Shown here: positions 44,654-59,808 of the stretch, in pieces
How positions within the stretch are numbered: the stretch's first letter is position 1
Layout: every line of letters begins with the position of its first letter
IMG/VR virus record: IMGVR_UViG_3300009103_000017
Location: 1-64,000 of that record
Length of the DNA stretch: 64,000 nt
From: a virus
Reading direction: 5' to 3' (one strand)
Notes under the pieces: generated by a model
The model's database searches: none
What the model saw: the letters and a program-made list of their open reading frames with translations, nothing else
Told to the model about the DNA's origin: nothing
Program-made: the position numbers and the translations under genes

Positions 44654-44840
44654 CTTGATAAGGTTATCTCGCGGTGTTGGCAATCACTTTGAGTTGAAAA
44701 GTTATGTTGCCACCTTAGTCAAGAAGCTGCCAAGAGATGATTCTTATGAATACGACTGGCTCGTTATGACAGACGGCAGATATATTGCACTAGGCAGACA
44801 AATAGAACAAAACGCGAGGATTCTCAGTGAAAGTCGGTGA
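44640..44840 (+). CDS. array unit, 66 aa
   Basis: MKVGDLI...RILSESR. Confidence 0.78.
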   Translation: MKVGDLIRLSRGVGNHFELKSYVATLVKKLPRDDSYEYDWLVMTDGRYIALGRQIEQNARILSESR

Positions 44841-45039
44841 TTTGGTGAGGCTACCAAAAGATGATCACTATTGGTGGGGCAGCAAGGTGGGCCTTGTAAC
44901 TGCTCTAGAGGATAATCATTTAAATCCTGAACTGAGTACTCTCAGAATCATGGTTGCCGTTCCCAGTCCAGAATACAGCTATGTTATGTTTGGTGCTAAT
45001 TTTGTGGAGTTAGTAAGTGAAAGTCGGCGATCTCGTTAG
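44827..45039 (+). CDS. array unit, 70 aa
   Basis: MKVGDLV...ELVSESRRSR; junction TGA changed to CGA. Confidence 0.78.
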   Translation: MKVGDLVRLPKDDHYWWGSKVGLVTALEDNHLNPELSTLRIMVAVPSPEYSYVMFGANFVELVSESRRSR

Positions 45040-45220
45040 GTGGACGGAAATTGAACAAGTTTATCATATTGCGTGTGCTATCGGGTTTGAAGATCTTGTC
45101 GAAGTCCGCCAACGTGGCGTGATTCTCGACAAGAATCCAAAATATTTCTTTGTATTTTGGGAGAACGGAGATTACCGGGCACAGCCCAGCTCTGATTTGG
45201 AGGTTATAAGTGAAGCTTAA
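45017..45220 (+). CDS. array unit, 67 aa
   Basis: MKVGDLV...LEVISEA. Confidence 0.78.
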   Translation: MKVGDLVRWTEIEQVYHIACAIGFEDLVEVRQRGVILDKNPKYFFVFWENGDYRAQPSSDLEVISEA

Positions 45221-45437
45221 CCCAGGGGATAGTCTTTATTATGAGCCACACTCTGCCTTTGCGGTGTTAATTGAGAGGTTTCCGGATGACCAGGGAAATT
45301 ATCGTTGGAGTTACGCGCTTCGCAGTCCCAGATCGCGCGATAACCCAAAGATAGTGGTGGCCATCCGAGAGGACTGTGAGACAAAACTTTTAGGGGCCGT
45401 GGAATCGGGAGAACTAGTGCATTATGAAAGTCGGTGA
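45210..45437 (+). CDS. array unit, 75 aa (divergent)
   Basis: MKLNPGD...ELVHYESR. Confidence 0.7.
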   Translation: MKLNPGDSLYYEPHSAFAVLIERFPDDQGNYRWSYALRSPRSRDNPKIVVAIREDCETKLLGAVESGELVHYESR

Positions 45438-45624
45438 TTTAGTGTTTGTAGACGGCTATGAGGTGGGTATTGTTTTGTCAGAGCCTAGGCTCTCGGAAGA
45501 TTGCTTACCGGGCGGCGAAGCTTACCCATACGAACACTATTACCTCGTTGATGTGTTAACTCAGAGCGGCGACCTGGATTGTTTTGAACCAGAGGACTTG
45601 GAGCTTGTCGGTGAAGCAAGGTGA
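45424..45624 (+). CDS. array unit, 66 aa
   Basis: MKVGDLV...LELVGEAR. Confidence 0.78.
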   Translation: MKVGDLVFVDGYEVGIVLSEPRLSEDCLPGGEAYPYEHYYLVDVLTQSGDLDCFEPEDLELVGEAR

Positions 45625-45868
45625 CCTCATAAGATATAGACTGGATCTTTGGAAGGCGAAGGCCAAGTGTATGGTGAGTAAAAGAATCTTTATTGTGCGC
45701 TGGGTTGAAGAAGAGAACGACTGGGTTTGCGTGTATGGCGTCGAGCCGCCAATACAAATGAGGATGATGGAGATCGTAAGTGAAAGTCGGTGTTTGCTAA
45801 ATGGAGAGACAAAAGGTAACCACTTAGAGTCAAGTGGAGTAAGTTTGTCACAGGACAAAAAAGAATGA
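45611..45868 (+). CDS. array unit that reads through a mutated junction
   Basis: MKQGDLI...MEIVSESR, then continues because TGA became TGT. Confidence 0.65.
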   Translation: MKQGDLIRYRLDLWKAKAKCMVSKRIFIVRWVEEENDWVCVYGVEPPIQMRMMEIVSESRCLLNGETKGNHLESSGVSLSQDKKE

Positions 45869-46056
45869 AAGTCGGTGACTTTGTGAGAGACAATCACCCA
45901 ACTCGTTCTAGTATCAACAAGGTTGGTGTAATACTAGAACGAACGCGCCTAGGCACATCGTGCTTAAACAAGTGCTTCAAGATCCTGTGGTGCAACGGCA
46001 CCATTGGAAACAACGTGTGGGACTATGACCTGAAGGTAATCAATGAAAGTCGGTGA
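45865..46056 (+). CDS. array unit, 63 aa
   Basis: MKVGDFV...LKVINESR. Confidence 0.78.
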   Translation: MKVGDFVRDNHPTRSSINKVGVILERTRLGTSCLNKCFKILWCNGTIGNNVWDYDLKVINESR

Positions 46057-46243
46057 CTTGGTAAGAACGCAGACCGGCTTTCGGACTCACGGCTTTGTGG
46101 TGGCTGTTGGGTATTCGCAAGAATATACGTGTGTGACCCAAAGCCCGGACTTACATCCTGATCTTTGGGTCATCAACGCTCGTAATGGTGAGAAAGAGAG
46201 ATGGTCATCCTATTATGTGGAGGTAATCAGTGAAAGTCGGTGA
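46043..46243 (+). CDS. array unit, 66 aa
   Basis: MKVGDLV...VEVISESR. Confidence 0.78.
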   Translation: MKVGDLVRTQTGFRTHGFVVAVGYSQEYTCVTQSPDLHPDLWVINARNGEKERWSSYYVEVISESR

Positions 46244-46406
46244 TTTGGTTCGATATTGTATCCCCAGTGGGGGCCGCACACCCATCGGGCTGGTGGTTGA
46301 AACTGACCACGACATAAATCCTAAGTTACCGTACAAGGTCCGATGGACAGACCACACAAGCTCAGAGAGAGACTGGTATGGGAAACGTGAATTGGTGAAA
46401 TTGTGA
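46230..46406 (+). CDS. array unit, 58 aa (MKVGDLVRYC...RELVKL)
   Basis: Hand-translated. Confidence 0.72.
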   Translation: MKVGDLVRYCIPSGGRTPIGLVVETDHDINPKLPYKVRWTDHTSSERDWYGKRELVKL

Positions 46407-46615
46407 ATCCCGGAGATCTGATCATGGTTAACGGAGGATTTCATGCTTTGGTGACGGATGTGGAGATGCTTTATCCTGGCAACCCACACTCTCCACCGAG
46501 GACACTCAGCGTTATTTGGGTGAATGGTTCCCCGGCTTGGGCGTTTGGCCCCAAGAGAGAAAAGATTGACGCAATGACAGTAGTAAGGATCTATAGGAAA
46601 GAAAGGAGGAAATGA
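46403..46615 (+). CDS. SH3/KOW-like small protein
   Basis: MNPGDLIMV...ALVTDV...VIW; GTGA overlap. Confidence 0.65.
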   Translation: MNPGDLIMVNGGFHALVTDVEMLYPGNPHSPPRTLSVIWVNGSPAWAFGPKREKIDAMTVVRIYRKERRK

Positions 46616-46731
46616 TGGAGTTTCTAGCGACAGTTTTAGCCATTGCTTGTGGTTTGTTTGTTGGGCAAATCGTTATCGACTGGTGGCGACAAGAGTGAGA
46701 CATCAGTGTCTCACAAAAAAGAAAAATATCC

Positions 46732-46760
46732 TTGACTTACAACATTAAGTATGATATTCT
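46732..46760 (+). promoter_or_regulatory. early-type sigma70 promoter
   Basis: TTGACT-17-TATTCT then ATATATACAC; preceded by the hairpin GTGAGACA-TCAG-TGTCTCAC. Confidence 0.65.
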
Positions 46761-46791
46761 ATATATACACTGAGAAATTAAGGAGAGTTTT

Positions 46792-47106
46792 GTGTCCGGT
46801 GTCTATGAGTCTGAGTTTATATCCGCGAAAAAGAATTTAAATCGTCAAGGTACGAAGGTATTGCACGACATTGCGAACGCTTATGAGACAGGCATCTTCG
46901 ATGATCCGAAATCATCGGCGATGTTTTGCTCGCTGCTTGCGTGCATTTGTGAAGGAAAGGTGCAGGGAGTCTTTGACGAAGAGTCTGGTAATATCAAGTG
47001 GTCACTGACTTCTGAGTATTCCGCAGAACTCGAAGCCCTTCGAGAAGCAATGATACAATCAGGTCTCGCATCCGGGAATGTAGTGCAGGGTCCATGGACC
47101 CAGTGA
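46792..47106 (+). CDS. hypothetical protein
   Basis: AAGGAG RBS with a GTG start. Confidence 0.6.
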   Translation: MSGVYESEFISAKKNLNRQGTKVLHDIANAYETGIFDDPKSSAMFCSLLACICEGKVQGVFDEESGNIKWSLTSEYSAELEALREAMIQSGLASGNVVQGPWTQ

Positions 47107-47336
47107 AGGGCCCTGTCTTTACCACCGGCGTTCTGGTGCACTTCGTTGACACGAGGAAAACTCAGTACGATTCTCTTGGCATGGTGAGAAAAATCATCAA
47201 TGGTGCACCCAACACATTATATGAGGTGGAGTGGTATGACGTCGATGACGTGGGAATCGAGACATACACTAGAGAAGACTTGGAGCTAGTGCATGAAGAT
47301 TGGCGATTTAGTTCAAAAGCGTATGGGCAGGATTGA
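47094..47336 (+). CDS. SH3-like small protein
   Basis: FTTGVLV...LGMVRK...YEVEW...EDLELV. Confidence 0.6.
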   Translation: MDPVKGPVFTTGVLVHFVDTRKTQYDSLGMVRKIINGAPNTLYEVEWYDVDDVGIETYTREDLELVHEDWRFSSKAYGQD

Positions 47337-47505
47337 TCCATACCAGCAGGGAACTATTGGGGTTGTTGTGGGCAAAGAGAGAGAGGATCGAGGATTTAAC
47401 CCAGCGTTTTATGGCTATTGGCTTGTGGTTTTGTATGTTGGTTCCGGCCGACCTGCTTACAGGTATAGACCAAGTGAGTTTGAGGTGATCAGTGAAAGTC
47501 GGTGA
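47293..47505 (+). CDS. array unit, 70 aa
   Basis: MKIGDLV...FEVISESR. Confidence 0.78.
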   Translation: MKIGDLVQKRMGRIDPYQQGTIGVVVGKEREDRGFNPAFYGYWLVVLYVGSGRPAYRYRPSEFEVISESR

Positions 47506-47671
47506 TCTGGTGAGATTAAGACAGAAGCGTAACCGAGCCGGCCCAACGGGTATCATCGTAAAGACCCTGTTGTTCTATCCTGGCGTACGCGCCAAGCACC
47601 TAGTCCTTGTTGGCGATAGTTGTTATAAACTCTGCGCTTCAGATTTGGAGGTTATAGGTGAAAGTCGGTGA
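47492..47671 (+). CDS. array unit, 59 aa (MKVGDLVRLR...LEVIGESR)
   Basis: Hand-translated. Confidence 0.75.
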   Translation: MKVGDLVRLRQKRNRAGPTGIIVKTLLFYPGVRAKHLVLVGDSCYKLCASDLEVIGESR

Positions 47672-47888
47672 TTTGGTAAAATTATCAGCGTATGGTGAAG
47701 CGCGCCAGTATAATGCTTGGTTGGTGGCCAGCGGTGAGCGCAGCAATGTGGGTTTGATAATAAAAGTGAACAAGAATTATAATTATCCTTATGTTGTTAG
47801 GTGGGCGGATACCCACGGGATTAGAACAGTGAATGGTTTTGGAGGCCCCACCCATTCACGACTGGAGTTGAAATATGCACATCGGTGA
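47658..47888 (+). CDS. array unit, 76 aa, paralog of 43123
   Basis: MKVGDLVKLSAYG...LKYAHR. Confidence 0.78.
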   Translation: MKVGDLVKLSAYGEARQYNAWLVASGERSNVGLIIKVNKNYNYPYVVRWADTHGIRTVNGFGGPTHSRLELKYAHR

Positions 47889-48051
47889 TCTGGTGATACT
47901 CCGCCCCCATTGTCGCGACTCCAGCCGGCAAGCGTTAGTCGTCGATGAATTGGCGCATTGTCCCCGCCATGTAGAAATTAAATTCCTAGATAATGGAGAG
48001 AGAACATTGGCATCAAAGAATAATCTGGATGTTATCAGTGAAAATCGGTGA
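47875..48051 (+). CDS. array unit, 58 aa (MHIGDLVILR...LDVISENR)
   Basis: Hand-translated. Confidence 0.72.
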   Translation: MHIGDLVILRPHCRDSSRQALVVDELAHCPRHVEIKFLDNGERTLASKNNLDVISENR

Positions 48052-48238
48052 TTTAGTTAGAATGCGATCTCGCTCATTAGAGGGAATATATGGCTTCGGG
48101 ATTATTGTTAGGCAACTTCGCAGCACTGCAGAAAGTCCAGGGGCCCCAGCATTCCAAGTTTTTTGGTCCAAGTATGGATTGGGCCGCCGCGTTGCTGCTC
48201 ATAGTTTGGAGAAAGTAAGTGAATTTAAAGAGGGGTGA
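48038..48238 (+). CDS. array unit, 66 aa (MKIGDLVRMR...LEKVSEFKEG)
   Basis: GTG in the repeat preferred over the track start 47993. Confidence 0.72.
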   Translation: MKIGDLVRMRSRSLEGIYGFGIIVRQLRSTAESPGAPAFQVFWSKYGLGRRVAAHSLEKVSEFKEG

Positions 48239-48404
48239 TCAAGTAAGGATCACGAACAAAAACAACATCGAGGGTGAGATCGTGGGGTTCTACGCCCATA
48301 CAATGGATGCGGTAGTTAAGACGAAGACAGGGAACGAGTGGATCGTTAGTCCTGTACATTTAGAATTGGTGGAAAACAAGTGGTGGAAAAGGAAGATAAG
48401 ATGA
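48219..48404 (+). CDS. SH3/KOW-like small protein (last array unit)
   Basis: LKRGDQVRI...GEIVG...HLELV. Confidence 0.68.
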   Translation: MNLKRGDQVRITNKNNIEGEIVGFYAHTMDAVVKTKTGNEWIVSPVHLELVENKWWKRKIR

Positions 48405-48550
48405 TTTATCATTTGACATATAGGATCAACAAGGGCCCAAAACAACACATTTACGCAATTAAGAAGATTTGCCAAAAAAAGAAAAAAGATCTTCTTAAAG
48501 AGTATGGTGATAAAATCAAATTTTCTCGTATAGAGAGGGCCTAAGTCGAT

Positions 48551-48623
48551 GGAGCACTGGCGCAAATGGTAGCGCATCGGACTTTTAATCCGCTGGTTCC
48601 GAGTTCGAGTCTCGGGTGCTCCA
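48551..48623 (+). tRNA. tRNA-Lys(TTT)
   Basis: GGAGCAC/GTGCTCC acceptor; CGGA-CTTTTAA-TCCG; CCGAG-TTCGAGT-CTCGG. Confidence 0.9.
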
Positions 48624-48630
48624 CAAAAGG

Positions 48631-49281
48631 ATGGTTTTAATGAAAAATAAAATAAACGTGCCAGTTCGTGATGGGGATGATGGATACTATGGGAGAGTTT
48701 TTGAATCTTCCTACGGTGTTGTAGAGAATAACAAGAGTTCCGTTGATTGCCCCTCTCTGGAATTGGAATTAAAGACAAAGAAAAGAAAATCAAATGCGAG
48801 AACGACACTTTTTTGCATGGAGCCTAAGTGGGGGTCTAGTTCGGTAATTCCGAACCTTGCAACGGCTCTAGCTCTGTTTAAGAACAGCACTGGGCGATTG
48901 AATACGTGTATTTCGACCACCGATAGGAACAATCTCAATCTTCAGTTAAAGTTGGTGGGATCACAGTTGTGGCTGAACTACGGAAGTCACGCTATTTGTT
49001 ATTGGAACCTGCCCTCTCTTTTAGAGAGGGCAGAAAGCAAGTTGAAAAATCTGCTGCTGTGTGAACATGACGGCTCCATCGACGAGACCAATAGCTTGGT
49101 GGAATTTAGTTCTTTTGACAAAAGTGGATTTGTTGATCTGTTGGCAAGAGGAAAACTGGTAGTGGAATTTAGACTGAAAGAAAGCGGGACATCGTCCCCT
49201 CGTAACCGTGGTACGGCCTTCCGCATGTTATCTAAATATATCACAGATCTGTATTCGACGTCGAAGGTGTTCAAGAAATGA
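48631..49281 (+). CDS. MvaI/BcnI-family restriction endonuclease-like protein
   Basis: GYYGRVFESSYGVVENN...D...ELKT...TLF and C-terminal RNRGTAFR; start moved off the tRNA (ATG 48631 or 48640). Confidence 0.65.
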   Translation: MVLMKNKINVPVRDGDDGYYGRVFESSYGVVENNKSSVDCPSLELELKTKKRKSNARTTLFCMEPKWGSSSVIPNLATALALFKNSTGRLNTCISTTDRNNLNLQLKLVGSQLWLNYGSHAICYWNLPSLLERAESKLKNLLLCEHDGSIDETNSLVEFSSFDKSGFVDLLARGKLVVEFRLKESGTSSPRNRGTAFRMLSKYITDLYSTSKVFKK

Positions 49282-50057
49282 AAGAAGAATTTGAACTAGG
49301 AACAGTCTATTTGGGAGATTGCAACGAAATACTTCAAAGTCTGGACAAGAACAGTGCTGAGGTCTGCGTAACTTCTCCTCCTTACAATTTGTGCAAGAGA
49401 TATTCAAATTACAAGAACTCAAAAACATCTCAGTCAATGACGGAGAAATATGATAGATGGTACTTCGATGAAATGCCCGAGTGGGAATATCAAGGTTGGC
49501 AGCAGTCTGTTATTCATTCTTTGATCAGGGTTTGTAATAGTAGTATATTTTACAATCACAAGGTGCGATTTGCTTGGCATAACAGGAATATTTTTAGGTC
49601 GGAAAGCAACTTACATCATCCTATGGATTGGTTACACAAATTTCCAATTTGGTGCGAGATCATATGGGATAGATGTGGAATCGGCAATCCTTCTAGGCGA
49701 TATCACACACAGGAGGAGAGAGTATATCAGATTGGGAAGCCAAAGAAGTGGAGCAACGAAATGGGTTTGACTAATATATGGAAAATTCCGCCATCTCGCA
49801 ACGACGGCCATGTATGTACTTTCCCAGCTAAGTTGGTTGAGAACTGCATTCTTCCCACCACATCGACTGGTGACATAATTATTGATCCATTTTTGGGGTC
49901 AGGCACCACAGCCACCGTTGCTGTTACCCATGGTCGCAGATTTATTGGGATTGAAAAAGATCAAAAATATTTTGATTTAGCTTGCAGAAACATCGAAGCC
50001 GCAATTAAAGCTAGTTCATCGCGAGACGTTAATTTTGTAGCCCTAACAGAAACATAA
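49278..50057 (+). CDS. beta-class N4-C/N6-A DNA methyltransferase
   Basis: GDC, TSPPY, H..TFP..LV, DPFLGSGTT, IGIE. Confidence 0.9.
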   Translation: MKEEFELGTVYLGDCNEILQSLDKNSAEVCVTSPPYNLCKRYSNYKNSKTSQSMTEKYDRWYFDEMPEWEYQGWQQSVIHSLIRVCNSSIFYNHKVRFAWHNRNIFRSESNLHHPMDWLHKFPIWCEIIWDRCGIGNPSRRYHTQEERVYQIGKPKKWSNEMGLTNIWKIPPSRNDGHVCTFPAKLVENCILPTTSTGDIIIDPFLGSGTTATVAVTHGRRFIGIEKDQKYFDLACRNIEAAIKASSSRDVNFVALTET

Positions 50058-50060
50058 ACC

Positions 50061-50303
50061 ATGAGGAAAGAAATGAGTAATTTTACCAATGCCAGCGCGC
50101 GACGACTGGCACGTCAGCTTTTTGACTTAGAGCAGAAGAAAAGAAAAGATATATTAGATGCGCTAGATTCAGATTTCAGAGCACAGGTGCTGGAAGCAAT
50201 GGCTATATTGAACAGCGATATGCCACTAGAAAAGAGAGACACGGCCCCGATGAGGCCAATCCCACCACTTTATCCTGGTCATCACGACAACGAAGAATAC
50301 TGA
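50061..50303 (+). CDS. hypothetical protein
   Basis: 80-aa ORF. Confidence 0.5.
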   Translation: MRKEMSNFTNASARRLARQLFDLEQKKRKDILDALDSDFRAQVLEAMAILNSDMPLEKRDTAPMRPIPPLYPGHHDNEEY

Positions 50304-50405
50304 TGCTGGGATTGATTTTTTCAACAATCGGCTGGATCGCGGTGGTTATGTTTATATCATACCTTATAGAGGGATGAGATACCAAGATTTTACATCAGAT
50401 TTTTC

Positions 50406-50434
50406 TTGACATAAGCATAAAAATCTGATAATGT
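50406..50434 (+). promoter_or_regulatory. early-type sigma70 promoter
   Basis: TTGACA-17-TAATGT then ATATATACACACAATGAAGAAAGG. Confidence 0.7.
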
Positions 50435-50465
50435 ATATATACACACAATGAAGAAAGGCATATTT

Positions 50466-50726
50466 ATGTCACCAGAACAAGCACAGGAATTACTCGCCCG
50501 CCTCAACGTACTTGAGGCGGAAAACGCCAATCTCAAGTCAGCACAAAAGAGAAATGGCTTAAAGATGAAGGTTTCGCAAAAGGGGGCTGTCAGCGTTTAT
50601 GGCATGGGACGCTTTCCGGTCACTTTGTATGCAGACCAGTGGAAGCGCATCGACGACGAGCTAATTCAAACCGGCGATCTTGAAAATTTTATCGAGGATA
50701 ACCGCTCTCAGTTGACTTTCAAGTGA
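50466..50726 (+). CDS. conserved hypothetical protein
   Basis: Coiled coil plus KVSQKGAVSVYGMGRFPVTLY..QW; start after the AAAGG RBS. Confidence 0.7.
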   Translation: MSPEQAQELLARLNVLEAENANLKSAQKRNGLKMKVSQKGAVSVYGMGRFPVTLYADQWKRIDDELIQTGDLENFIEDNRSQLTFK

Positions 50727-50821
50727 TCTTCTCGCAGTTGGGCCAGTGCCAGGGGGAACATCATAAACCGGCCCCGTGCCCGTTGCCCAACTGCGAGATT
50801 TAATTGATTAATAGGGGAAAA

Positions 50822-51031
50822 ATGTTTAATCAAGATACCGCTGATGATATTTTTGATGATTTTATGACAAATCGCGTTGCACAAGGTGCATTATTTGCTG
50901 ACTTCGTGTCGCTATTAAACATGAAAGCAGCAGAAAACGTAGAAAATACAGAAAAAATGGAACTTCTCACAGAAATTCTCAACGATTTGAAGCTTTTTAC
51001 CAATCCAGCAGCCAACCAACTGGCTCATTAG
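50822..51031 (+). CDS. hypothetical protein
   Basis: AGGGG RBS before ATG; MFNQDTADD. Confidence 0.55.
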   Translation: MFNQDTADDIFDDFMTNRVAQGALFADFVSLLNMKAAENVENTEKMELLTEILNDLKLFTNPAANQLAH

Positions 51032-51196
51032 ATGATGGTTGGCGACCTGATCCGATGTAACGGCGCGTATGAAACCAATATCGGAGTAGTATTGCATGAT
51101 AATCCCGATGGCGGCACGGTCAAAATCTTTGATCAAGAGAAGTGTATCGCTTTTTGGGTTATTAGAAGTCAATGCAGGGTGATTTCAAAGAAGTGA
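51032..51196 (+). CDS. SH3/KOW-like small protein, 54 aa
   Basis: MMVGDLIRC...IGVVL...RVISKK; hand-translated. Confidence 0.6.
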   Translation: MMVGDLIRCNGAYETNIGVVLHDNPDGGTVKIFDQEKCIAFWVIRSQCRVISKK

Positions 51197-51423
51197 TCAG
51201 GTCAAAAAAAGAGAAGCCCATGGGAATTATTGAAATTGACTTAACTGGGCCAGAGGGCAACGCCTTTGCCTTGTGTTCTGCCGCTCGAACCATCGGCCGG
51301 GATCTGGGATACTCAGAAAACCGAATTGCTGCAATCTGCAAAGTAATGATGATGGGCGATTACGACGGCTTGATTAAGGTGTTTGATAGAGAATTTGGCC
51401 AAATTGTGACGCTATGGAGGTGA
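51172..51423 (+). CDS. hypothetical phage protein
   Basis: IDLTGPEGNAF...GDYDGLI motif; exact start uncertain. Confidence 0.65.
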   Translation: MQGDFKEVIRSKKEKPMGIIEIDLTGPEGNAFALCSAARTIGRDLGYSENRIAAICKVMMMGDYDGLIKVFDREFGQIVTLWR

Positions 51424-51512
51424 CGTGTTTACATTAATCGAAGCTACAGATCCAGAAGGTTTCAACGCCATCAGTCTTGCCCTAAATGTATTGGCGGACT
51501 TGATTTTTATGG

Positions 51513-51743
51513 GTGCTTTGTATTGGTCCTGTCGCAACTCACCCGGTGATCGGTGAAATGGTCCTGATTAGATATCAGGGTGAACAACTTTGCGGAATCG
51601 TCTTAGAAAAATTCAAGAGGCATGGCTATGGGAATCACCATGAATTGTGGCTAAAGTGTTTGTGGTGTGACGGGGAGATTGAAAGTATCAGGTACAATCC
51701 AGACCTGCACTTCATCCCGCGAAAAAAAGAACAAAAAGACTAA
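51513..51743 (+). CDS. SH3-like small protein
   Basis: IGEMVLI...GIVLEK...LWCDG. Confidence 0.5.
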   Translation: MLCIGPVATHPVIGEMVLIRYQGEQLCGIVLEKFKRHGYGNHHELWLKCLWCDGEIESIRYNPDLHFIPRKKEQKD

Positions 51744-51751
51744 AATAGTTC

Positions 51752-51780
51752 TTGACAAATCCTAGAAATTCGGGTAATAT
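51752..51780 (+). promoter_or_regulatory. early-type sigma70 promoter upstream of the putative ncRNA
   Basis: TTGACA-17-TAATAT then ATACATATAAACAATCGAGA. Confidence 0.7.
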
Positions 51781-51789
51781 ATACATATA

Positions 51790-52275
51790 AACAATCGAGA
51801 TGCGCCTTGAGGATTGGCCGTGATAAAGGAATCCTTGTAACTGTGGTTAGCGACCCGTATAGCTTGAAAGTGTAGGGTAAGCGGCGAGAATCCGCGATGG
51901 CCCCAAAAATAGAAAGATTCTTTAAACATAATCAATACTTGAGTGAAGGATTTTAGCGTCCGATCAGCGCGAAGGTTCTTCAGTGTAGAGCAGTAATACC
52001 AAGAGGCATGTTCAAATCGTGTCCACGCAGGAAAAAGTACTGCGTGCCGCGACGCGCACTAGGTAGAAAGGCGTCGTAGGGTCCGGCCTTGGGTTGTGTG
52101 GTGAGTTGTTGTGCACGACAGCAAGCCTTCCACAAGCTCAAGTATTGTTTAGGTTTAATGATTCACCCGTGGGGGACATAGGCCAGATGGTTCTTACCAG
52201 TGGTTGCGTAAGCGAGGGAGTGATTCCCAGGGTAGGCTATGTCCAGTTGTGGAAAGTTGGGAATCCACGACAATT
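51790..52275 (+). ncRNA. putative large structured ncRNA, family unassigned
   Basis: Own promoter, no credible ORF or RBS, long-range helix 51933-51943/52137-52147 and many nested hairpins. Confidence 0.65.
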
Positions 52276-52385
52276 TTGTCAATGCCAATCGCGCGATTTT
52301 TTTCCGTTTCGCGCCAATTTTTTCCTTGACCTAGCGGTCAAGACGTGATAAGATATAGTATATCAACAATCGAGAAGGGCAAAAA

Positions 52386-52559
52386 ATGAGTTTCCTTTAT
52401 CGTAACTGGACAGTCCACAACCTAATTGGGCACCCTTTGAGTGAATTGGTTTTCTGGCTTGTGCGCCCGTTCGTGGGCTTGGCAAAGGCAGAAAGACTAT
52501 CAGGCGAGTTTCACGACTTGACCATCCCTGTGCATGAGCCGGGCACCGGAAGGGGTTAA
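52386..52559 (+). CDS. small hypothetical protein, 57 aa
   Basis: MSFLYRNWTVHNLIGHPL; promoter TTGACC-17-TAAGAT at 52326. Confidence 0.6.
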   Translation: MSFLYRNWTVHNLIGHPLSELVFWLVRPFVGLAKAERLSGEFHDLTIPVHEPGTGRG

Positions 52560-52560
52560 A

Positions 52561-52746
52561 ATGCTATTAGAGACGATCAATGGTAGCTATTTTGCGGTCA
52601 CACGCGAATTTATTCGACGTATGACCCGCGCAGAGCTAGAGAGACACCTAGAGGCCCGAGGCTTTGCGGTGTATGACGATGAATCTACGGCTGAGTTGCG
52701 AGCATGTGCATTAGCCGACTACGACAATGAGGACACAACATCATGA
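52561..52746 (+). CDS. hypothetical protein
   Basis: AGGGG RBS; LEARGFAVYDDE. Confidence 0.55.
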   Translation: MLLETINGSYFAVTREFIRRMTRAELERHLEARGFAVYDDESTAELRACALADYDNEDTTS

Positions 52747-52925
52747 TCATGAGCTTGCTTTCGGGCGCACTTGCCACCGCCTTGTTTATTGCTACCCTGA
52801 ACATCGGCGAACCCACCGATAAAGACAGTCAAATTAATTTGTAAATAGGGTCACTTTTTCCTTGACTTTAGCTTAAATTTCCGGTAGTATTATATATACA
52901 CACAATGAAGAAAGGGCTTTTTGCC

Positions 52926-53261
52926 ATGACCGAATCGACACGTTGGTATTATCGCTTAGGAAATCAGGACGGACACGAGTTCCTGTGGTCTGGTGCCGTA
53001 ACTGTCAATCAGAAGATCGACAAAGCACAGGCGCGGCGGGTGGTCGCCAAGCATGAGCGGCTCAAACGTCTGCCCGCGCATACTGTCGTTGTCTCTTGCC
53101 GGGAGTTGGCACAGCGCAAGTGGACCGAAGCCAAGATCCGGCAGGCCACGACGGGAAGTGCACAGCCGACACCGGTTGCCGTCGCACCAAAGGCGTTCGA
53201 GGACGTTGGCCCGTCCATGGACGACATTCAGGCAATGCTCAAGAAGCACGGCCTAGCCTAA
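52926..53261 (+). CDS. hypothetical protein
   Basis: Promoter TTGACT-17-TAGTAT at 52862; AAAGGG RBS; MTESTRW. Confidence 0.6.
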   Translation: MTESTRWYYRLGNQDGHEFLWSGAVTVNQKIDKAQARRVVAKHERLKRLPAHTVVVSCRELAQRKWTEAKIRQATTGSAQPTPVAVAPKAFEDVGPSMDDIQAMLKKHGLA

Positions 53262-53469
53262 TGGGCTTTTGGTGCACGTCAAAAGGTCAAATAGCGTTGA
53301 CCTATCCCAAAACGTCGTTTCTTGGCTTGTCGACGTTTTGGGGCATGAGTTACAAGCGATATAATCTGGTGTTGAGTGAAGACACGACAACACCATATGG
53401 CATTTTACACTTTGGCCCGTTTGAGTTCTTCATCCGGCCCAGAGCAGTATTTCTTTAGGCGAGGACATT

Positions 53470-53679
53470 ATGAATAGTTATAGTAAATTTCCAATCGTTT
53501 CAATCCCATTTGCAGGGGGTTATTATATGTGTGTTGAGGGTTCAGCCCGTCATGACGCATTGAACCGCGCCGCACACGCCTTCAACATGGGCTATAGGGA
53601 CTTGGCCGAAGACCTCAAGCAAGAGGCATTGACCAAGCCAGGCTGTGCATTTGAGGCACGCGAGAACGCTAACCACTAA
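53470..53679 (+). CDS. hypothetical protein
   Basis: GAGGA RBS. Confidence 0.55.
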   Translation: MNSYSKFPIVSIPFAGGYYMCVEGSARHDALNRAAHAFNMGYRDLAEDLKQEALTKPGCAFEARENANH

Positions 53680-53834
53680 CCAAAACATCCCCGAGGGCAC
53701 TAAATTTAATTTGTAAATGAGGTCAAATAGTTCTTGACTTCAGGTGTGACTTAGGGTATAATATATATATATTGAGAATCGGAAAAGGTCCGAATCCAAT
53801 ATCACCACACACTGTCTTTGAAAGGACAAACATT

Positions 53835-54104
53835 ATGAAGCGCGTACAAAGCAACATCGTCAACATCGGTTTCACCATCATGAAGGCTCAACAGGACGTT
53901 AAAGACGGACAGGGCCGCACAAAGAAGACCAAAGCACAGGGCATTGAAATCAATCAAGCCGTAGTTAACGGCACATCAGCCGGTTGCACTTTCCGCACTA
54001 TCAACGGTGCACAGAAGTCCGCTGCAATCAATCTGGACACCGAAGCCTTGCAGGACCTCCTGACGGCTGTTACTGAGGTGTTGGCTGTTAACGAGGACAA
54101 CTAA
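53835..54104 (+). CDS. small protein, paralog of 55080
   Basis: MKRVQSNIVNIGFT...INLDTEALQDL; promoter TTGACT-17-TATAAT at 53734; AAAGGA RBS. Confidence 0.7.
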   Translation: MKRVQSNIVNIGFTIMKAQQDVKDGQGRTKKTKAQGIEINQAVVNGTSAGCTFRTINGAQKSAAINLDTEALQDLLTAVTEVLAVNEDN

Positions 54105-54231
54105 TATCATGTTCAAGACTCCAGCACGTCAACGATCACGAGACGTTTCATTCATTGCAGGCCGCCGTGCACGACGCATCAAGGGCACCATTAACCGACC
54201 AATCCGACTAAATGAGGATCTAAAGTAGAAT

Positions 54232-54420
54232 ATGTTCGTACAATCTAAAGTAAACACAGTACATAGGCAAAAGAACGGCGTAGCCATTAGGCAACGTCGA
54301 GGAGAACGCGAGACACTGGTACAGTGGGAAAATGGCGTTCAGCGTTGGGTAGATACTGACGACCTATCCGGCACCATCCGACTCGTCGGCTCAGAAGTCG
54401 AGGAGTATTACAATGAGTAG
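54232..54420 (+). CDS. small SH3-like protein
   Basis: GVAI...LVQWENG...WVDTDDL. Confidence 0.5.
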   Translation: MFVQSKVNTVHRQKNGVAIRQRRGERETLVQWENGVQRWVDTDDLSGTIRLVGSEVEEYYNE

Positions 54421-54699
54421 AAGAAAATCAGTTGCACGCGCATGGTCCAAAACAAAAAGAAAAGGTTAAGTAATTAACGGTCAGCCCAAAAACACTTCAA
54501 AAGAGTTATTTATTTAACACTGACTCTTTAAAGGGGCGTTAGGAAGCTGACGGCTATAACGCGACTTAGTACATACCACAGCCACACACACGCTGTCAAC
54601 GTTCATTTGTTAACGGTGAACGCGTCAAGGCTTTGACGGGCGCGCATATATCACCGCTCCTCATCCGGCGTTAGTTAATTAACACGGGAACCTTGCAGA

Positions 54700-55740
54700 T
54701 GTATGGCAAGGTAGGTGGAAGACCTACACCGGTTCCAACGTATGGCGGTGTAGGCAACGAACACATGTGTGTGTGCATGTGTGGTGATAGCCCACAGGTA
54801 GGGAAGTGTAGGTGTTCAGCATGCTTGACTAGTCACCGAGCACGTACCTTCTCCTACCTGTGGGCCGATGTGGGTTTAACACCTACATATGCCAGTTGAT
54901 TTTCACGGGCACGGGACAGCAAAACAGGCCAATTTCTAAGTGCTTAGAATCATTGACCTTTTACGATTTAATTGTTTTTTTCTCTTTTTTATGAGATAAT
55001 ATATATACGAAATGAGGGAATCACTACCCCTCGAAACACACAACCCCGGACAGCACCGGGAAAACGAAAGGGCCTAAACATGGCTATCAAGCGCGTACAG
55101 AGCAACATTATCAACCTAGCATTTACCGTCACAACCGAGGACGGCAAAGCAGGCGTACAGGTCAATCAGGCCATCGTCAACGGCGTTTCTGCCGGTGTGC
55201 AGCTCCGCACCATGAACGGGGCGCGCAAGTCGGCGCAAATCAACCTCGACACCGCAGCCCTTGAAGACCTGCGTGAGGCACTGACCGAAATCCTCGGAGG
55301 TGAGGAAGGGTAGGCCCAGCACCTACATTGTGCCCCTATGTCAGATAAGGTCGCTGATGTAGGATAAACGCCCATTCGACCTTACAGTATCCTACCATGT
55401 CGCACAGTGTCGACAACCTGACTACCCTTGACTACACACAACCACCTTGTAGTCAAGGGTATTCTTTTACCTACCTTACCTACATCACCATACACTCCCA
55501 CACAATGTGGTCGAGGGTAATAAAATAAATACATTAACATACCAGTAGTACAACAGCATACGTACACCCACGTCACCATACGTGTAGGTCTACAGTATAC
55601 ACAGTAGTACATGTAAGAAAAGAAAACACATTGTAAGCAAAAGTATTATATGTAGGTGTATGTGGGGAGAGGTGCCCCCTCCCCCCCTATGTGCCGGAAT
55701 GTAAGTCGCATACCTACATGTAGGGTAATGTAGGCCTAAT
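54700..55740. repeat. dispersed CCTACA/TGTAGG hexamer cluster in noncoding DNA
   Basis: 12 exact copies in both orientations, including the palindrome CCTACATGTAGG at 55713. Confidence 0.7.
55080..55313 (+). CDS. small protein, paralog of 53835
   Basis: MAIKRVQSNIINLAFT...INLDTAALEDL. Confidence 0.7.
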   Translation: MAIKRVQSNIINLAFTVTTEDGKAGVQVNQAIVNGVSAGVQLRTMNGARKSAQINLDTAALEDLREALTEILGGEEG

Positions 55741-55816
55741 ACACGCTTTCAACGCGTAGAAAAATTTACCAGATTCGAAATATCAGACTAATTAAAAGTG
55801 TAAAAGGAGACCCACC

Positions 55817-56395
55817 ATGAAAATCACCAAAAAATATTTGCAGAAGTTAATAAGAGAAGAAACAACCAAGCAGCTACGAAAAAGAGCAAAGACAAATGAA
55901 AATAAGGTTCCAAGCGTCAGAAGGCCGGGATATATGATTGACCAGGCCGGGGCGGCCCAAGAAACGGCGAAAATACATGGATCATTGGCTAAGGATTTGG
56001 ATAATAACCTTTCTGTGGATCAAATCACCGCGATCTCCGGTGCAGGAGGATTCATCGAAACTCACAGAAGGGATTTGGAGAAGATAATGGCCCTTTCGCC
56101 GGCCGAGCGAGGGCCAAAGAACCCGGCATATAATGCATGGGCCAGTTGGGTGAAGAAACTCGACGAGAAATCGATGAAAGCGCTTTTTCGAATCGGACAA
56201 TGGGTCTCCGAGCGCGGATGGGACGGAAGTCCACACACTAACTTTGCGGACGTATTTCATTATATTGCATATGAATTAGCGACGGAAAATATGGGTGCAC
56301 GCGTTCGGTCAATCCCTGTAAGAGAAGGAAGAAACATTTCAGAACAACTTAAGTGGCGAAGAGGAATTCACCCGATCGCGAAGAAGAATTATTGA
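55817..56395 (+). CDS. hypothetical protein with an MKITKK leader
   Basis: AAGGAG RBS; MKITKKYLQKLIREE. Confidence 0.7.
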   Translation: MKITKKYLQKLIREETTKQLRKRAKTNENKVPSVRRPGYMIDQAGAAQETAKIHGSLAKDLDNNLSVDQITAISGAGGFIETHRRDLEKIMALSPAERGPKNPAYNAWASWVKKLDEKSMKALFRIGQWVSERGWDGSPHTNFADVFHYIAYELATENMGARVRSIPVREGRNISEQLKWRRGIHPIAKKNY

Positions 56396-56413
56396 TATAT
56401 TATTGATATTGAC

Positions 56414-56662
56414 ATGAAAATCACCAAAAAATATTTGCAGGGATTAATAGAGGAAGAGGTGCAGAAGGTTCTGTTAAAAGAACAGCTCAGTCGCAGAAAA
56501 TCTGATCTTAACGATCTTTACAAGCGTATACGGCGCCTCCAAAAGCAGGTTCCTTGGACTGATGACGTAAATCACACTTGGGGTACCGATCTGACAACTG
56601 CTTTAATGAGTATTCATACAATGTTGGATCATGATCTTAAGAAATCAAAGGAGGCGCCATGA
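56414..56662 (+). CDS. hypothetical protein with an MKITKK leader
   Basis: First 27 nt identical to those of 55817. Confidence 0.7.
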   Translation: MKITKKYLQGLIEEEVQKVLLKEQLSRRKSDLNDLYKRIRRLQKQVPWTDDVNHTWGTDLTTALMSIHTMLDHDLKKSKEAP

Positions 56663-57075
56663 AAATTACCAAGAAAAAACTAATTGCATTGATTGCTGAA
56701 GAATTAAGCGTGCTTTTGGAAGAGCAATCTTCTGATGAAGATGAAGATGAAGATGAAACTGAAGAAGAAGACGGGAAAGGTGGATATGAATCACCTAGAG
56801 ATGCGCACGTTAAGGGCTCGAAGTATGCAGGCGCCGGCAAGTTTATTGGCAAAGGTGGTAAGAAAGCTTTCCGGAAAGTACAGTGCAGGAAATCATGGAA
56901 AATACATGGTCAATGGGTTCATGGTATGCAAGATTGCGCCAAATTGCTAGCTAGCGACGACGGTGAGGAGAAAGGCAACTCTTCAGGTAGCGCTAACAGC
57001 TCTAATCAAAGCGAGCTCAACTCTCAGCGCTTAGATACAATTGAAAGGCGCCTTAGAAACGCCAATATTGCATAG
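56659..57075 (+). CDS. hypothetical protein with an MKITKK leader
   Basis: MKITKKKLIALIAEE; acidic tract; GGAGG RBS. Confidence 0.7.
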   Translation: MKITKKKLIALIAEELSVLLEEQSSDEDEDEDETEEEDGKGGYESPRDAHVKGSKYAGAGKFIGKGGKKAFRKVQCRKSWKIHGQWVHGMQDCAKLLASDDGEEKGNSSGSANSSNQSELNSQRLDTIERRLRNANIA

Positions 57076-57661
57076 CCCTAGGGGCGTTCTTAATTTGCTG
57101 GCTTCACTCTACCCCTAAGCATGGCCATGAAACCCGTTAAAACCCCATTACAGGCCTTCTAGGGTGCATTTTGGCGTAAATTTGGCGATGAATTCAATAG
57201 CTAGCTACAATACTCACTCAATATAAGAAGAAATTGATACATATATTGTAGTTGATGTTCAAATTTTTGATTTTTAGGCGCTCAGTGATTGTTCTGATGG
57301 TGTAAATTGGTGTAAATTGAACATAAAAGTCGATTTTTAATCAATAAATTTTCTTATAGGAGGTAAAAGGCCGCAAAATACTCTATTTTTCGCGAAAAAG
57401 GTCGTTTCTTGTTATATAGCGCTTTGAAGTGCATGATGCAGTGGCGTTAAATAACGATTTGACCTAATATCGCGATGGGATTTTAAGAATTTTAGCAGTA
57501 CTGTAAAAAAATTCGTGCAAAAATTGCCGCTTTTCGGGGATTTGACTTTGGAAAAAAATTTCGTCGCGAATTGCGGGCATTTTTTATTTAAAATAAATCC
57601 GAAACATGGCCTGCGAAGAGGCCTTTATCACCTTTTCTTTTATTGAGGGCTATTTACTAGT

Positions 57662-58429
57662 ATGAAACTTATAATGGAAAATTGGAAACAATTTCTTCTT
57701 AAGGAAAATGAATCCCCCCTGCAGGTTATGGTGTGTGGAGACAGTATTATGAATCACGCCTTTCCGCCATACAATAGTCGCAAAATATTGAAGAATTTGG
57801 GCCTATCTTCTAAAAACTCATATATTATGAGGTATGCCATACCAGGCAATACAGTGGGAATGATATCGAGAAAACAAATTCCGAATGCTCTGAGTCAAGC
57901 GAAGCGGCGCGCCGGGGGATCTGGCGTGGTCGTGGTCGTCAATGGTGGCATAAATAATGCTCCGGGCTGTGGAATCGACTCATACGTAGATCGCCGCGGC
58001 AAAATCAAACCTCTCCCCGAATATAAATACAAATATCATAAAGTATCTGAAGTTAAGAAAGTGTGGGGAGAGATTGCTTCTAAGGTTATTGCTAGTGGTC
58101 AGAATACTTTAGTAATAGTTCCCATTTTCAAAACTGTAGAAAAACCAAATATTTATCGTTCAAAATTTTATGGAAATCCAGCTTGGTACAGAAGGCGCGC
58201 CCAAAAGCGTATTGGATCTAAAAAGAGGCCGTATTCAATAGATGAGGCAATAAATGAAATAAATGCTTACCTTAAAACTTTAGCTGATAATAAGAGGGTA
58301 TTTTATGTGGACGAATTAGAAAACACAACAGCTGATCATGAAGATGGCCTACATTATACGAGATCTACGTCATTTAAAATTGCGCAAACTATAATTAATT
58401 TCGTAAAAGAAAAAATACACAGTAACTAA
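57662..58429 (+). CDS. SGNH/GDSL hydrolase with an MKLIMENW leader
   Basis: GDS, PG, GINN, DGLH blocks. Confidence 0.75.
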   Translation: MKLIMENWKQFLLKENESPLQVMVCGDSIMNHAFPPYNSRKILKNLGLSSKNSYIMRYAIPGNTVGMISRKQIPNALSQAKRRAGGSGVVVVVNGGINNAPGCGIDSYVDRRGKIKPLPEYKYKYHKVSEVKKVWGEIASKVIASGQNTLVIVPIFKTVEKPNIYRSKFYGNPAWYRRRAQKRIGSKKRPYSIDEAINEINAYLKTLADNKRVFYVDELENTTADHEDGLHYTRSTSFKIAQTIINFVKEKIHSN

Positions 58430-58480
58430 TGTGTGATATTGCGTGTTTTCAATTCTATTTATAGCAAAAGGAGTGACCTT

Positions 58481-59308
58481 ATGTCAAGCATGAAGCTTAT
58501 AATGGAAAATTGGAGAAAACTCATAAAAGAGACTCCAAAAATTAAAAAGAAAAAATTCAAAGACCCATATGGATTCAAAGACCCATATGGTAGATATGGA
58601 CTTTTTTCACATGGAAACTTTGTCAAAAGAGTGAGACCAAAGAAAAAGATCACGTGTATAGTTATTCATGAATCCGGTAACCCACGCATAGGGGGCCTTT
58701 TGTCCACGCTGAATAGCCGCGGCTATAGTGTAAACTGGGCCGTTACAAGCGGCAAAAAAGAAGAATTAATTCCTTCTTACTACCAAACTAAGCATGCCGC
58801 GGGCTACAACAAGTCTTCAATTGGAATAGAAGTGAACCACGCCTATCACAAGGGTAAAGGCGGAGAGGCGCCGATTCCCGCCCCGTTCATAGCTAAGTAC
58901 AATGTCTATGGAGTACCAACTGAAAGGACACTCGAAGCCACATACGAACTTTGCAAAGACTTGTGTAAAGAGTGGCAAATAGAATTCAAGATTGCAAATT
59001 TAGATGGTAATGAATTTGCAGTAGTCGGTCAAAAGAGGGCCCAAATCGGAATTATTGCCCACGGTGCAGTCGGGGTAAAATCTGATGGTCTTTTCCCATG
59101 CCTTTATATGGTTCTAAGAGAAAAAGGCTATTCTCCGTCACAAGCTCGACAGCAAGCAACTTCTTTGATGACTGGTATCGACAAAAGGAAGACGGCAACA
59201 ATTGTGTTACCCGAAGGCCCCGAAGGCGATCCGAAGCCAAAACCCACGCCCATTGTTCATGATCGACATCCAAAGCGGGCCGCCGTATCCGGCAAAAAAC
59301 TGCAATAA
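58481..59308 (+). CDS. N-acetylmuramoyl-L-alanine amidase (Amidase_2-like) with an MKLIMENW leader
   Basis: IVIHES, HAAGYNKSSIGIEV, IIAH, KSD; AAGGAG RBS before ATG 58481. Confidence 0.7.
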   Translation: MSSMKLIMENWRKLIKETPKIKKKKFKDPYGFKDPYGRYGLFSHGNFVKRVRPKKKITCIVIHESGNPRIGGLLSTLNSRGYSVNWAVTSGKKEELIPSYYQTKHAAGYNKSSIGIEVNHAYHKGKGGEAPIPAPFIAKYNVYGVPTERTLEATYELCKDLCKEWQIEFKIANLDGNEFAVVGQKRAQIGIIAHGAVGVKSDGLFPCLYMVLREKGYSPSQARQQATSLMTGIDKRKTATIVLPEGPEGDPKPKPTPIVHDRHPKRAAVSGKKLQ

Positions 59309-59355
59309 AATTACTTAAGTGAGTATTCTAAATCTAGTAGCACCTACTTAATAAT

Positions 59356-59808
59356 ATGAAGTTAATATTTTCTATTCTTGCCATTTTTATATTTGCTTGC
59401 GGTTCGGGCCCTCAACAGGTTGAAAAAAGAAACGCAGAACTTATAGTAACATATCAAGGCAAAGAGGTTCATAGGGCAGGCTCTAGATATAAAAGCTTTG
59501 ATGAATTAAAAGAAATCTCAGAAAGAGTTCAAAAAAAATACATAATTTTTAGTGCACGGTGGTGCAAGTCTTGTACATTCTTAAACAAGGCTTTAGAACA
59601 GAGTGGTCACGCCCCCTTAGTGTCCCAAATAGATGTAGAGGAATTATGGGTTCAGGGTTTAGCTAAGTTTTTTAAAATAACAGGTGTCCCAACTTTATTG
59701 GTGGTAGATGAAAAAGACCGAATTATTAAAAGGTCGGCCGGCCCATCGGAAATAGTAATGTACCTGCTTATAAATGTCAAAACGGAAGATGAGGGAATTA
59801 TCCCGTGA
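59356..59808 (+). CDS. thioredoxin-like lipoprotein
   Basis: Lipobox IFAC; FSARWCKSC; GVPTL. Confidence 0.75.
   Translation: MKLIFSILAIFIFACGSGPQQVEKRNAELIVTYQGKEVHRAGSRYKSFDELKEISERVQKKYIIFSARWCKSCTFLNKALEQSGHAPLVSQIDVEELWVQGLAKFFKITGVPTLLVVDEKDRIIKRSAGPSEIVMYLLINVKTEDEGIIP

Follow-up and report, generated by a model that had tools for sequence, protein, structure and literature searches.

A candidate early-region RNA cassette composed of three separable modules in an uncultivated marine phage

Introduction

Several described systems share features with the element reported here, a candidate structured RNA encoded at about positions 51790 to 52275 on the + strand of a 64-kb stretch of viral DNA (hereafter the window). 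The window is the first 64 kb of the 73.9-kb IMG/VR virus record IMGVR_UViG_3300009103_000017, which is ~41% complete according to CheckV. T4-type phages have promoter-early stem-loop (PeSL) cassettes (PMC2839356, PMC4122927), in which repeated promoter and terminator junctions border variable early cargo that is gained, lost or replaced exactly at those junctions. The YrlA Y RNA has a tRNA-like domain whose branches follow the order T, capped acceptor-like stem, D (Chen et al. 2014, PMC4201824), and in M. smegmatis YrlA the 7-bp acceptor-like stem is a determinant of RNase P cleavage (PMC4201824). GOLLD (RF01998) and ROOL (RF03087) are large structured RNAs free of open reading frames (ORFs), found in phages with tRNA genes (PMC5737381; PMC12286853), and structured-RNA candidates have also been reported from viral metagenomes (PMC10690425).

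Our analyses showed that the RNA is a chain of three modules, M1, M2 and M3 with its terminator, each of which folds and is inherited on its own, and at least one helix in each module carries compensatory changes. As in PeSL cassettes, the cargo is swapped between two constant parts, the promoter on one side and M3 on the other, and in one metagenome contig (from run X3, below) the joint falls at the border of M2 and M3. The locus differs from PeSL cassettes in that one cargo is a structured RNA and not an ORF, and in that a three-way junction of 115 nt, whose loop is invariant, takes the place of a simple stem-loop on the terminator side. Like GOLLD and ROOL, the RNA is large, ORF-free and carried by a phage with tRNA genes, but it has no sequence or structure match to either, is smaller, and consists of separable modules in place of one conserved architecture. 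With the viral-metagenome candidates it shares both the type of object and the type of source, uncultivated viral contigs.

Results

A Promoter-Driven, Structured, Non-Coding Unit

The locus was confirmed as a real, promoter-driven, structured and non-coding unit on the + strand. It has the following features:

51752..51780, + strand: sigma-70-type early promoter, TTGACA-17-TAATAT (10/12 matches)
51787..51800, + strand: putative transcript start, placed by its distance from the -10 box, and conserved leader AUAAACAAUCGAGA
51803..51886, + strand: M1, 5' hairpin domain of predicted helices, closed by CGCC/GGCG
51916..52164, + strand: M2, stem-closed 249-nt domain and unit of exchange (from the fold and contig borders)
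51916..51944, + strand: M2 closing helix, 5' arm (pairing probability 0.82-0.97)
51945..51981, + strand: M2 hairpin A, with the 7-nt loop CCGAUCA (YYGAUCA in variants)
51999..52092, + strand: M2 four-way junction, closing stem CCAAG/CUUGG (5 bp, 51999-52003/52088-92)
52005-52023, + strand: M2 T-loop hairpin, GCAUG-UUCAAAU-CGUGU (pairing probability 0.94)
52024-52046, + strand: M2 capped 7-bp stem with loop GAAAAAGUA, abutting the T-arm without a gap (probability 0.98)
52047-52080, + strand: M2 D-like hairpin with loop GCACUAGGUAGAAAG (probability 0.86)
52094..52135, + strand: M2 hairpin B, less certain and variable (probability ~0.55)
52136..52164, + strand: M2 closing helix, 3' arm (from the inverted repeat and the fold)
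52165..52245, + strand: M3, conserved three-way junction (four IMG/VR copies)
52174-81/52237-44, + strand: M3 helix P1, 8 bp
52182-52204, + strand: M3 variable hairpin P2 (predicted fold)
52205-52236, + strand: M3 long irregular arm, GCGUAAGCG-GGGAGUGAUUCCC-AGGGUAGGC (predicted fold)
52246..52280, + strand: intrinsic terminator, with an 8-bp stem, the 10-nt loop AAGUUGGGAA and the weak U run AAUUUUGUC

The window was compared with sequences of relatives and other contigs (labelled L and a number), and contigs from four marine metagenome runs (X3 to X6) were aligned to it. Interpretation is confined to the parts that these four runs cover; runs X7 to X20, which share only small fractions of the short sequence words, were left aside.

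An earlier, sequence-only reading of this DNA had placed a strong promoter at 51752, and TTGACA-17-TAATAT is present at 51752-51780. The same reading had found no credible ORF, and we agree with it: no + strand ORF of at least 30 amino acids (aa) lies between 51790 and 52088, and a frame of 84 codons from a TTG (52094-52348) crosses the terminator and the next promoter. Searches with the RNA stretch by blastn and tblastx found no relative among the loci compared, and a protein search with a spurious 53-aa minus-strand ORF returned no matches.

The high degree of structure that had been claimed was upheld by folding of the whole unit (516 nt), which gave -172.6 kcal/mol (z=-3.2), as good a value being reached by 0 of 100 shuffles; the - strand folded more weakly (-137.6 kcal/mol). 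All of the helices that had been named are present, none displaced by more than 1 base. They include AGGATT/AATCCT in M1 (7 bp, 51809-15/51830-36), CACGCAG/CTGCGTG (7 bp, 52024-30/52040-46) and GCGACGC/GCGTCGT (7 bp, 52049-55/52071-77) in M2, P1 of M3 (8 bp, 52174-81/52237-44) and the terminator stem (8 bp, 52246-53/52264-71). The pairing of 51933-43 with 52137-47 proved longer than had been thought, with 12 bp at 51933-51944/52136-52147 in a 28-nt inverted repeat that takes in TTAAAC/GTTTAA and the ends. Two pairings stood only in part. Five base pairs of CCAAGAGGC/GCCTTGG were retained (51999-52003/52088-92) and the remainder was not, because 52005-52010 belongs to the T-loop hairpin, which takes up G52005-G52010. 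For the proposed GAAGG/CCTTC extension the letters are there, but in the minimum-energy fold GAAGG at 51945-49 pairs locally with 51977-81 and not with the distal CCTTC. This local stem is preserved in the X5 variant by compensatory changes of both strands.

The sequence-only reading could assign the RNA to no known family, and the Rfam covariance-model check bore this out: no family reached its gathering score on the whole window, and no match at E<=10 was obtained on 51600-52500 or on short pieces. Low-scoring Rfam matches to RAGATH-23 (minus strand, 15.8 bits against a threshold of 92.6 bits) and to CRISPR-DR30 (11.4 bits) were set aside as chance.

M3 and the Terminator Form a Shared 3' Module

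In relatives M3 stands behind an ORF, a tRNA or another RNA, which makes the final ~115 nt a shared module in its own right. The promoter at 51752 is 84% identical over 62 nt to one in L018 and L026, where it is followed by a 92-codon ORF with a good ribosome-binding site and then by M3. In L018, a stretch 91% identical to 52200-52263 lies 4 bases past the stop codon of this ORF and has a hairpin and a long T run at its end. The 92-aa product is a real protein family (67 clusters), and the window contains no copy of its gene. In L024, M3 is preceded by tRNA-Arg and ~120 nt. In L025 it comes after another stem-closed RNA, ~75 nt long (z=-2.9), and M3 can therefore follow other structured cargo.

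The M3 core is identical in the four IMG/VR copies, and M3 was also found in X3, X5 and X6 contigs. The variable hairpin P2 ranges from ~14 to ~90 nt among the four copies, is always a hairpin, and has 4 pairs altered on both sides. The terminator stem differs in the window, L024, L025, L018, X3 and X6 and forms a hairpin in 6/6, with pairing incomplete only in L025 (one A-C mismatch) and in X3 and X6 (loss of one pair). Both-side changes affect 4 of its pairs among the four copies, which together with P2 makes a total of 8 pairs. Each of the two contig versions (GUUAAGG/CCUUAAC, X3; GGUAGAG/CUCUACC, X6) folds into a hairpin. Despite these stem changes, the loop AAGUUGGGAA or a one-letter variant of it occurs in all copies. 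The segment UGGGAAUC (52258-52265), which runs from the loop into the first base of the stem, is fully complementary to GAUUCCCA (52222-52229) in the long arm of the junction, and the computed energy of this loop-to-arm duplex is -8.6 kcal/mol. The terminator U run has 4 U in the window versus 6-8 U in the relatives.

We also considered M3 and the terminator as a riboswitch. M3 begins 4 nt past a stop codon in L018, the terminator stem covaries without a matching change in P1, and no antiterminator alternative is visible, all of which speak against such a function.

An M3 covariance model identified exactly 1 copy in each of four records and 0 in three other related records, and neither 22 sources nor 5 whole records yielded additional or diverged copies. 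Pattern scans of IMG/VR with M3 returned only the same three contigs and one chance match in a coding region. The corresponding GTDB scan returned one contig, identical to L025 and filed in a 'Legionellales' metagenome-assembled genome (MAG), which we did not count as host evidence. This contig, L030 (PBLX01000048.1, 84.5 kb, 'Legionellales bacterium' MAG), gave blastn alignments identical to those of L025 and carries the M3 region along with early genes and tRNAs of the phage; probably, binning placed a phage contig in a bacterial genome.

Some further observations concern M3 and its surroundings. The stem-closed RNA before M3 in L025 (4064-4140, - strand) has a 10-bp closing helix, ACACACAGCC/GUUGUGUGU. 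Immediately after the M3 terminator in L024 (5585-5670) there is an AAGGAG and a short ORF (21 codons) encoding a very hydrophobic peptide (MVVSAIILGIVTTLLLIAVAG), followed by the next promoter. A 9-mer of the M3 junction, AGGGTAGGC, recurs exactly at 55307-55315, and its near-matches are weakly enriched in the window (13 versus 7.7 expected).

Modules Are Exchanged at Sharp Borders

Two features downstream of the RNA are needed to follow the exchange of modules:

52285..52354, + strand: T-rich element and next early promoter, TTGACC-17-TAAGAT, a cassette boundary outside the RNA
52386..52559, + strand: 57-aa gene (phrog_36447), downstream of the RNA

The 57-aa gene has 16 relatives in IMG/VR. 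In the record with the closest of these (84% identity; 159 kb, 88% complete), the promoter of the gene is kept and all three modules are absent, both nearby and record-wide. The promoter at 52285-52354 is conserved in L002 and L024.

The metagenome contigs showed the modules in several other arrangements. An X3 contig matches window 51697-52162 with 2 differences, continues with 34 other letters, and then resumes in frame from 52407 within the 57-aa gene. The 34-letter joint contains AGGAG and an in-frame ATG (7 codons, by hand), such that the start codon is 13 nt past M1 and M2. In this near-identical strain M1 and M2 are thus the leader of the 57-aa gene, with no M3, terminator or second promoter there. 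The match of an X6 contig is limited to 51922-52164 (28 differences, 2 gaps), with foreign sequence on either side. M1 occurs without M2 in an X4 contig, which matches 51838-51897 and then diverges, and an X5 contig has a copy of M2 ~800 nt downstream of the start of the 57-aa gene. The module borders coincide with the feet of predicted helices, at 51916/52164 for M2 and 52165 for M3.

Searches for the locus in other collections found little. No match, even at E<=10, was obtained among INPHARED phages for 51740-52385, 45000-60000, M3 alone or the M2 core. Patterns for the M2 core 20-mer, the closing helix, and the T-loop with the capping loop gave nothing in IMG/VR, or chance matches in genes. 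A scan of JGI metagenomes with the M2 core 20-mer gave only a 21-nt match in an unrelated tRNA-like stretch beside a tRNA-Met gene. This element, seen in L027 (3020-3100, - strand) and L028 (260-320, + strand), ends in the same T-arm and CCACCA and is not a tRNA according to ARAGORN.

M2 Is a Stem-Closed Domain with a Possibly tRNA-Like Core

When M2 was folded alone, the + strand reached -89.8 kcal/mol (z=-4.47; 0/200 shuffles as good) and the - strand -65.4 kcal/mol (z=-3.08). The + strand is the more stable by 24 kcal/mol, which therefore points to G-U pairs and to an RNA rather than a DNA palindrome. The closing arms (51916-51943/52137-52164) are 28 nt long and 86% complementary, and GATTC is present at both ends of M2 (51916-20 and 52160-64). 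In X6 the left flank (...TAATCA), read by hand, mends two U-U mismatches of the closing helix in the window.

Hairpin A is maintained in the X5 and X6 variants by changes on both sides of the stem. In X5, as rebuilt from the listed differences, the hairpin is kept (-17.1 kcal/mol) with three double changes in the upper stem and the entire lower stem swapped for GGCUUG/CAAGCC. The upper stem is retained in X6, and at 51958/51968 a G-C pair has become A-U in both X5 and X6. The GAUCA of the loop is kept across the variants, and the GAUC within it hints that the loops of two RNA copies may be able to pair, as in a multimer.

No change is among the differences listed for X5 and X6 at 51987-52054, while the flanks diverge by ~12%. 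Within the four-way junction, GCAUG-UUCAAAU-CGUGU is a T-arm by both sequence and shape. Of the four occurrences of the motif GTTCRAWYC in the window, two lie in real tRNAs, one lies in M2 within a proper stem, and one is a chance occurrence on the other strand; from motif counts and base composition we estimate that ~0.1 stemmed motifs per window would be expected by chance. The D-like hairpin comes after CC and has a 15-nt loop that contains AGGUAGA. Hairpin B is more variable: in X5, 52120 A>G and 52121 G>A retain pairs, and, going by the differences listed, pairing is broken by 52118 A>C in X5 and by 52097 U>C, which X5 and X6 share. In one X5 contig 52052-52125 is absent or replaced.

By inspection of the predicted fold, the M2 core has the same branch order as the YrlA tRNA-like domain, likewise inside a stem-closed domain, and its capped stem has 7 bp, as in M. 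smegmatis YrlA. Occurrence in phages and modularity are also common to YrlA and M2. M2 differs in its extra hairpins A and B and its over-long D-like stem, and the GNCGAA(N)G motif was not seen in the hairpin A region when this was searched by hand. On this basis we suggest, with low confidence, that M2 works like a YrlA-type RNA, which is not to say that it is one.

M1 Hairpin 1 Is Maintained by Compensatory Changes

The first hairpin of M1 (51809-51836) has the loop GGCCGUGAUAAAGG and is followed by smaller hairpins. In the X4 contig, whose hairpin 1 lies in the 30 letters before 51838, 4 pairs are altered on both sides (A-U to G-C, G-C to A-U, U-A to C-G, and U-A to A-U) and 1 on one side (G-U to G-C), and all still pair. 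The 14-nt loop is the same at 13/14 positions, the difference being C51819 to G. In metagenome contigs 51885 C>U turns a G-C pair of M1 into G-U.

The Promoter Family and Genome Setting

The RNA locus is situated among very small genes, each behind the same type of promoter, and Pfam and PHROGs assigned no function to the flanking small proteins. An alignment of four window sites and four sites of relatives defined this promoter type as a T-rich upstream run, TTCTTGAC, 17 nt, TAtAAT, ATATA, and then AACAATCGAG leading into the ribosome-binding site. The frame TTCTTGAC...TAtAATATATA...AACAAT is also found at 52326, 52862 and 53734 and in L018, L024 and L025. In the sister cassettes the leader AUAAACAAUCGAGA continues into a ribosome-binding site, whereas in the RNA locus no gene stands behind it; AACAATCGAGA occurs again at 52365, ahead of the 57-aa gene, and in the promoters of relatives. 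Phased T or A runs with short GC blocks (CCAATCGCGCGATTTTTTT...) lie upstream of the -35 boxes of the early promoters (52285-52325, 51722-51751, and the aligned sites of relatives), and may be UP elements or recombination junctions.

All sizeable ORFs of the window are on the + strand. The phage codes for a DnaB-type helicase, a DnaE-type polymerase, a class II ribonucleotide reductase, a GroEL-type chaperonin and a MoxR/VWA pair, and has four tRNA genes. No RtcB, RNA ligase or CCA-adding enzyme family was found in the 73.9-kb record, and the upstream 76-aa protein had no relatives in an IMG/VR search. Metagenome runs from marine and seawater samples contain the DNA of the window. The RNA is preceded, at a distance of ~1.7 kb, by a 259-aa ORF (49278-50057) with an SPPY motif that by eye resembles an N4/N6 DNA methyltransferase. 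A repeat of ~30-40 nt recurs many times between short ORFs at 43950-47700, just past the tRNA cluster, and is also present in L024 and L026 (blastn).

Discussion

The same promoter and the same 3' module flank either a gene or an RNA cargo, and modules are exchanged at sharp borders. We consider it probable that the locus is an early-region cassette with an RNA cargo, in which M3 is a 3'-end cassette and M2 a binder with the shape of a tRNA elbow. The RNA would be transcribed by the host RNA polymerase early in infection, from ~51787 to ~52280, and M3 with the terminator would be a portable 3'-end cassette that ends transcription. The invariant terminator loop UUGGGAA likely contacts the invariant UUCCCAG of the junction arm, which would give a compact 3' end resistant to exonucleases. 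M2 would be the cargo, with the T-loop hairpin stacked on the capped 7-bp stem beside the D-like hairpin to form a tRNA-elbow-like surface. Its most likely partner would be a host or phage protein that recognises the shape of tRNA, for which M2 may be a decoy or a scaffold in the manner of YrlA-type Y RNAs. Recombination at the recurring junctions of promoter and terminator may move the modules to new positions, as in PeSL cassettes.

A number of observations weigh against this interpretation. The RNA of ~490 bases is a prediction as regards its start at ~51787, its end at ~52280 and its stability. On the + strand M1 alone folds no better than shuffles (z=-0.1) and M3 alone not notably better (z=-1.6). 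Covariation in M1 and M2 was read from the listed differences of the X contigs and from loose-end consensus strings and not from a full alignment, and the invariant M2 core, P1 and the long arm of M3, and the loop-to-arm contact are without covariation support. The likeness of M2 to tRNA is topological only, with a D-like stem of 7-9 bp and not 4 and a variable region of 1 nt, and in X5 and X6 the first G of the GG in the D-like loop is A. ARAGORN detected no tRNA in the native region or in a scripted permuted M2 with three different loops, and the Rfam Y-RNA-like and tRNA models had no match at E<=10 on 51985-52100 or 51600-52500. Ro60/TROVE (PF05731) was not found in the ~41% complete 73.9-kb record, in searches to which the controls responded.

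Also on the negative side are two observations that favor the main rival explanation, namely that M1 and M2, alone or together with M3, form a long structured 5' untranslated region and regulate the 57-aa gene in cis by attenuation, occlusion of the ribosome-binding site or processing. In X3, M1 and M2 directly precede the start of the 57-aa homologue (13 nt, with AGGAG) with no terminator between, and the 4 U of the window terminator make read-through into the 57-aa gene possible. In addition, M3 with the terminator formally resembles an aptamer and expression platform. We nevertheless regard a cis-acting leader as unlikely, though the most serious of the alternatives, on account of the 57-aa gene having its own full promoter and leader 50 nt past the terminator, conserved in relatives that lack the RNA. 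M2 is also found ~800 nt downstream of the start of the 57-aa gene in X5 and within foreign flanks in X6. M3 follows a stop codon directly in L018 and hence is a 3' element there, and the terminator stem covaries freely with P1 unchanged and no antiterminator in sight.

An explanation at the level of DNA appears improbable to us. M2 could be an insertion similar to a miniature inverted-repeat transposable element (MITE), or filler between recombination junctions, with the RNA fold as a by-product. The 28-nt terminal inverted repeats with GATTC at both ends, the several unrelated contexts in which M2 occurs, and its absence from close relatives, which shows it to be dispensable, are all consistent with such an element. 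However, M2 is present as a single copy per record, unlike a MITE, and in X6 the left GATTC is lost, the flank extending the helix instead, with no evident target duplication. Moreover, a DNA palindrome would have no need of the G-U pairs through which the + strand gains its 24 kcal/mol, the inner hairpins covary around an invariant core, and M2 is always on the transcribed strand behind a promoter.

It is highly improbable that the RNA is the pseudogene remnant of a protein gene once carried as cargo, even though relatives have a gene at the same place in the cassette. Neither tblastn nor tblastx revealed a likeness to the 92-aa gene or the other loci compared, remnants of an ORF cannot be seen, shuffles fold far less stably, and the variants show compensatory pair changes and indels that are not multiples of three. 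We give almost no credence to a single ornate RNA of the GOLLD or ROOL kind, with all 480 nt in one architecture, which the sequence-only reading had proposed on finding a nested organization: its size, its setting in a phage with tRNA genes and the minimum-energy pairing of 51887-51905 with 52170-52173 and 52284-52300 are in its favor, but these outer pairings use sequence beyond the terminator and are lost where modules stand alone, the 480 nt are three modules found separately and with separate histories, and Rfam had no match to GOLLD, ROOL or any other family.

To return to the cassette with an RNA cargo, a bolder and rather doubtful extension is that M2 and M3 represent two undescribed RNA families of marine phages, M2 a Ro60-independent mimic of the tRNA elbow and M3 a pseudoknotted 'armoured terminator'. 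M2 would then titrate or recruit a host factor that recognises tRNA, such as an anticodon nuclease, another tRNA-targeting defence, RNase P or a modification enzyme. Any early transcript, whether a gene, a tRNA or an RNA cargo, could receive M3, which would set the 3' end and lifetime of that transcript. As M2 and M3 are short with sharp borders, they are practical for tests in a laboratory host.

The early regions of large phages are usually read as strings of tiny orphan genes. Here a protein gene and a folded RNA are alternative occupants of one expression cassette, and RNA cargo is therefore seemingly exchanged like genes. Should M3 indeed stabilise 3' ends and be transferable, it would offer a compact natural part with which to control RNA lifetime and would show how phages protect their early transcripts. 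If M2 is an elbow mimic that functions without a Ro60 partner, it would widen the known range of tRNA mimicry in the conflict between phages and their hosts.

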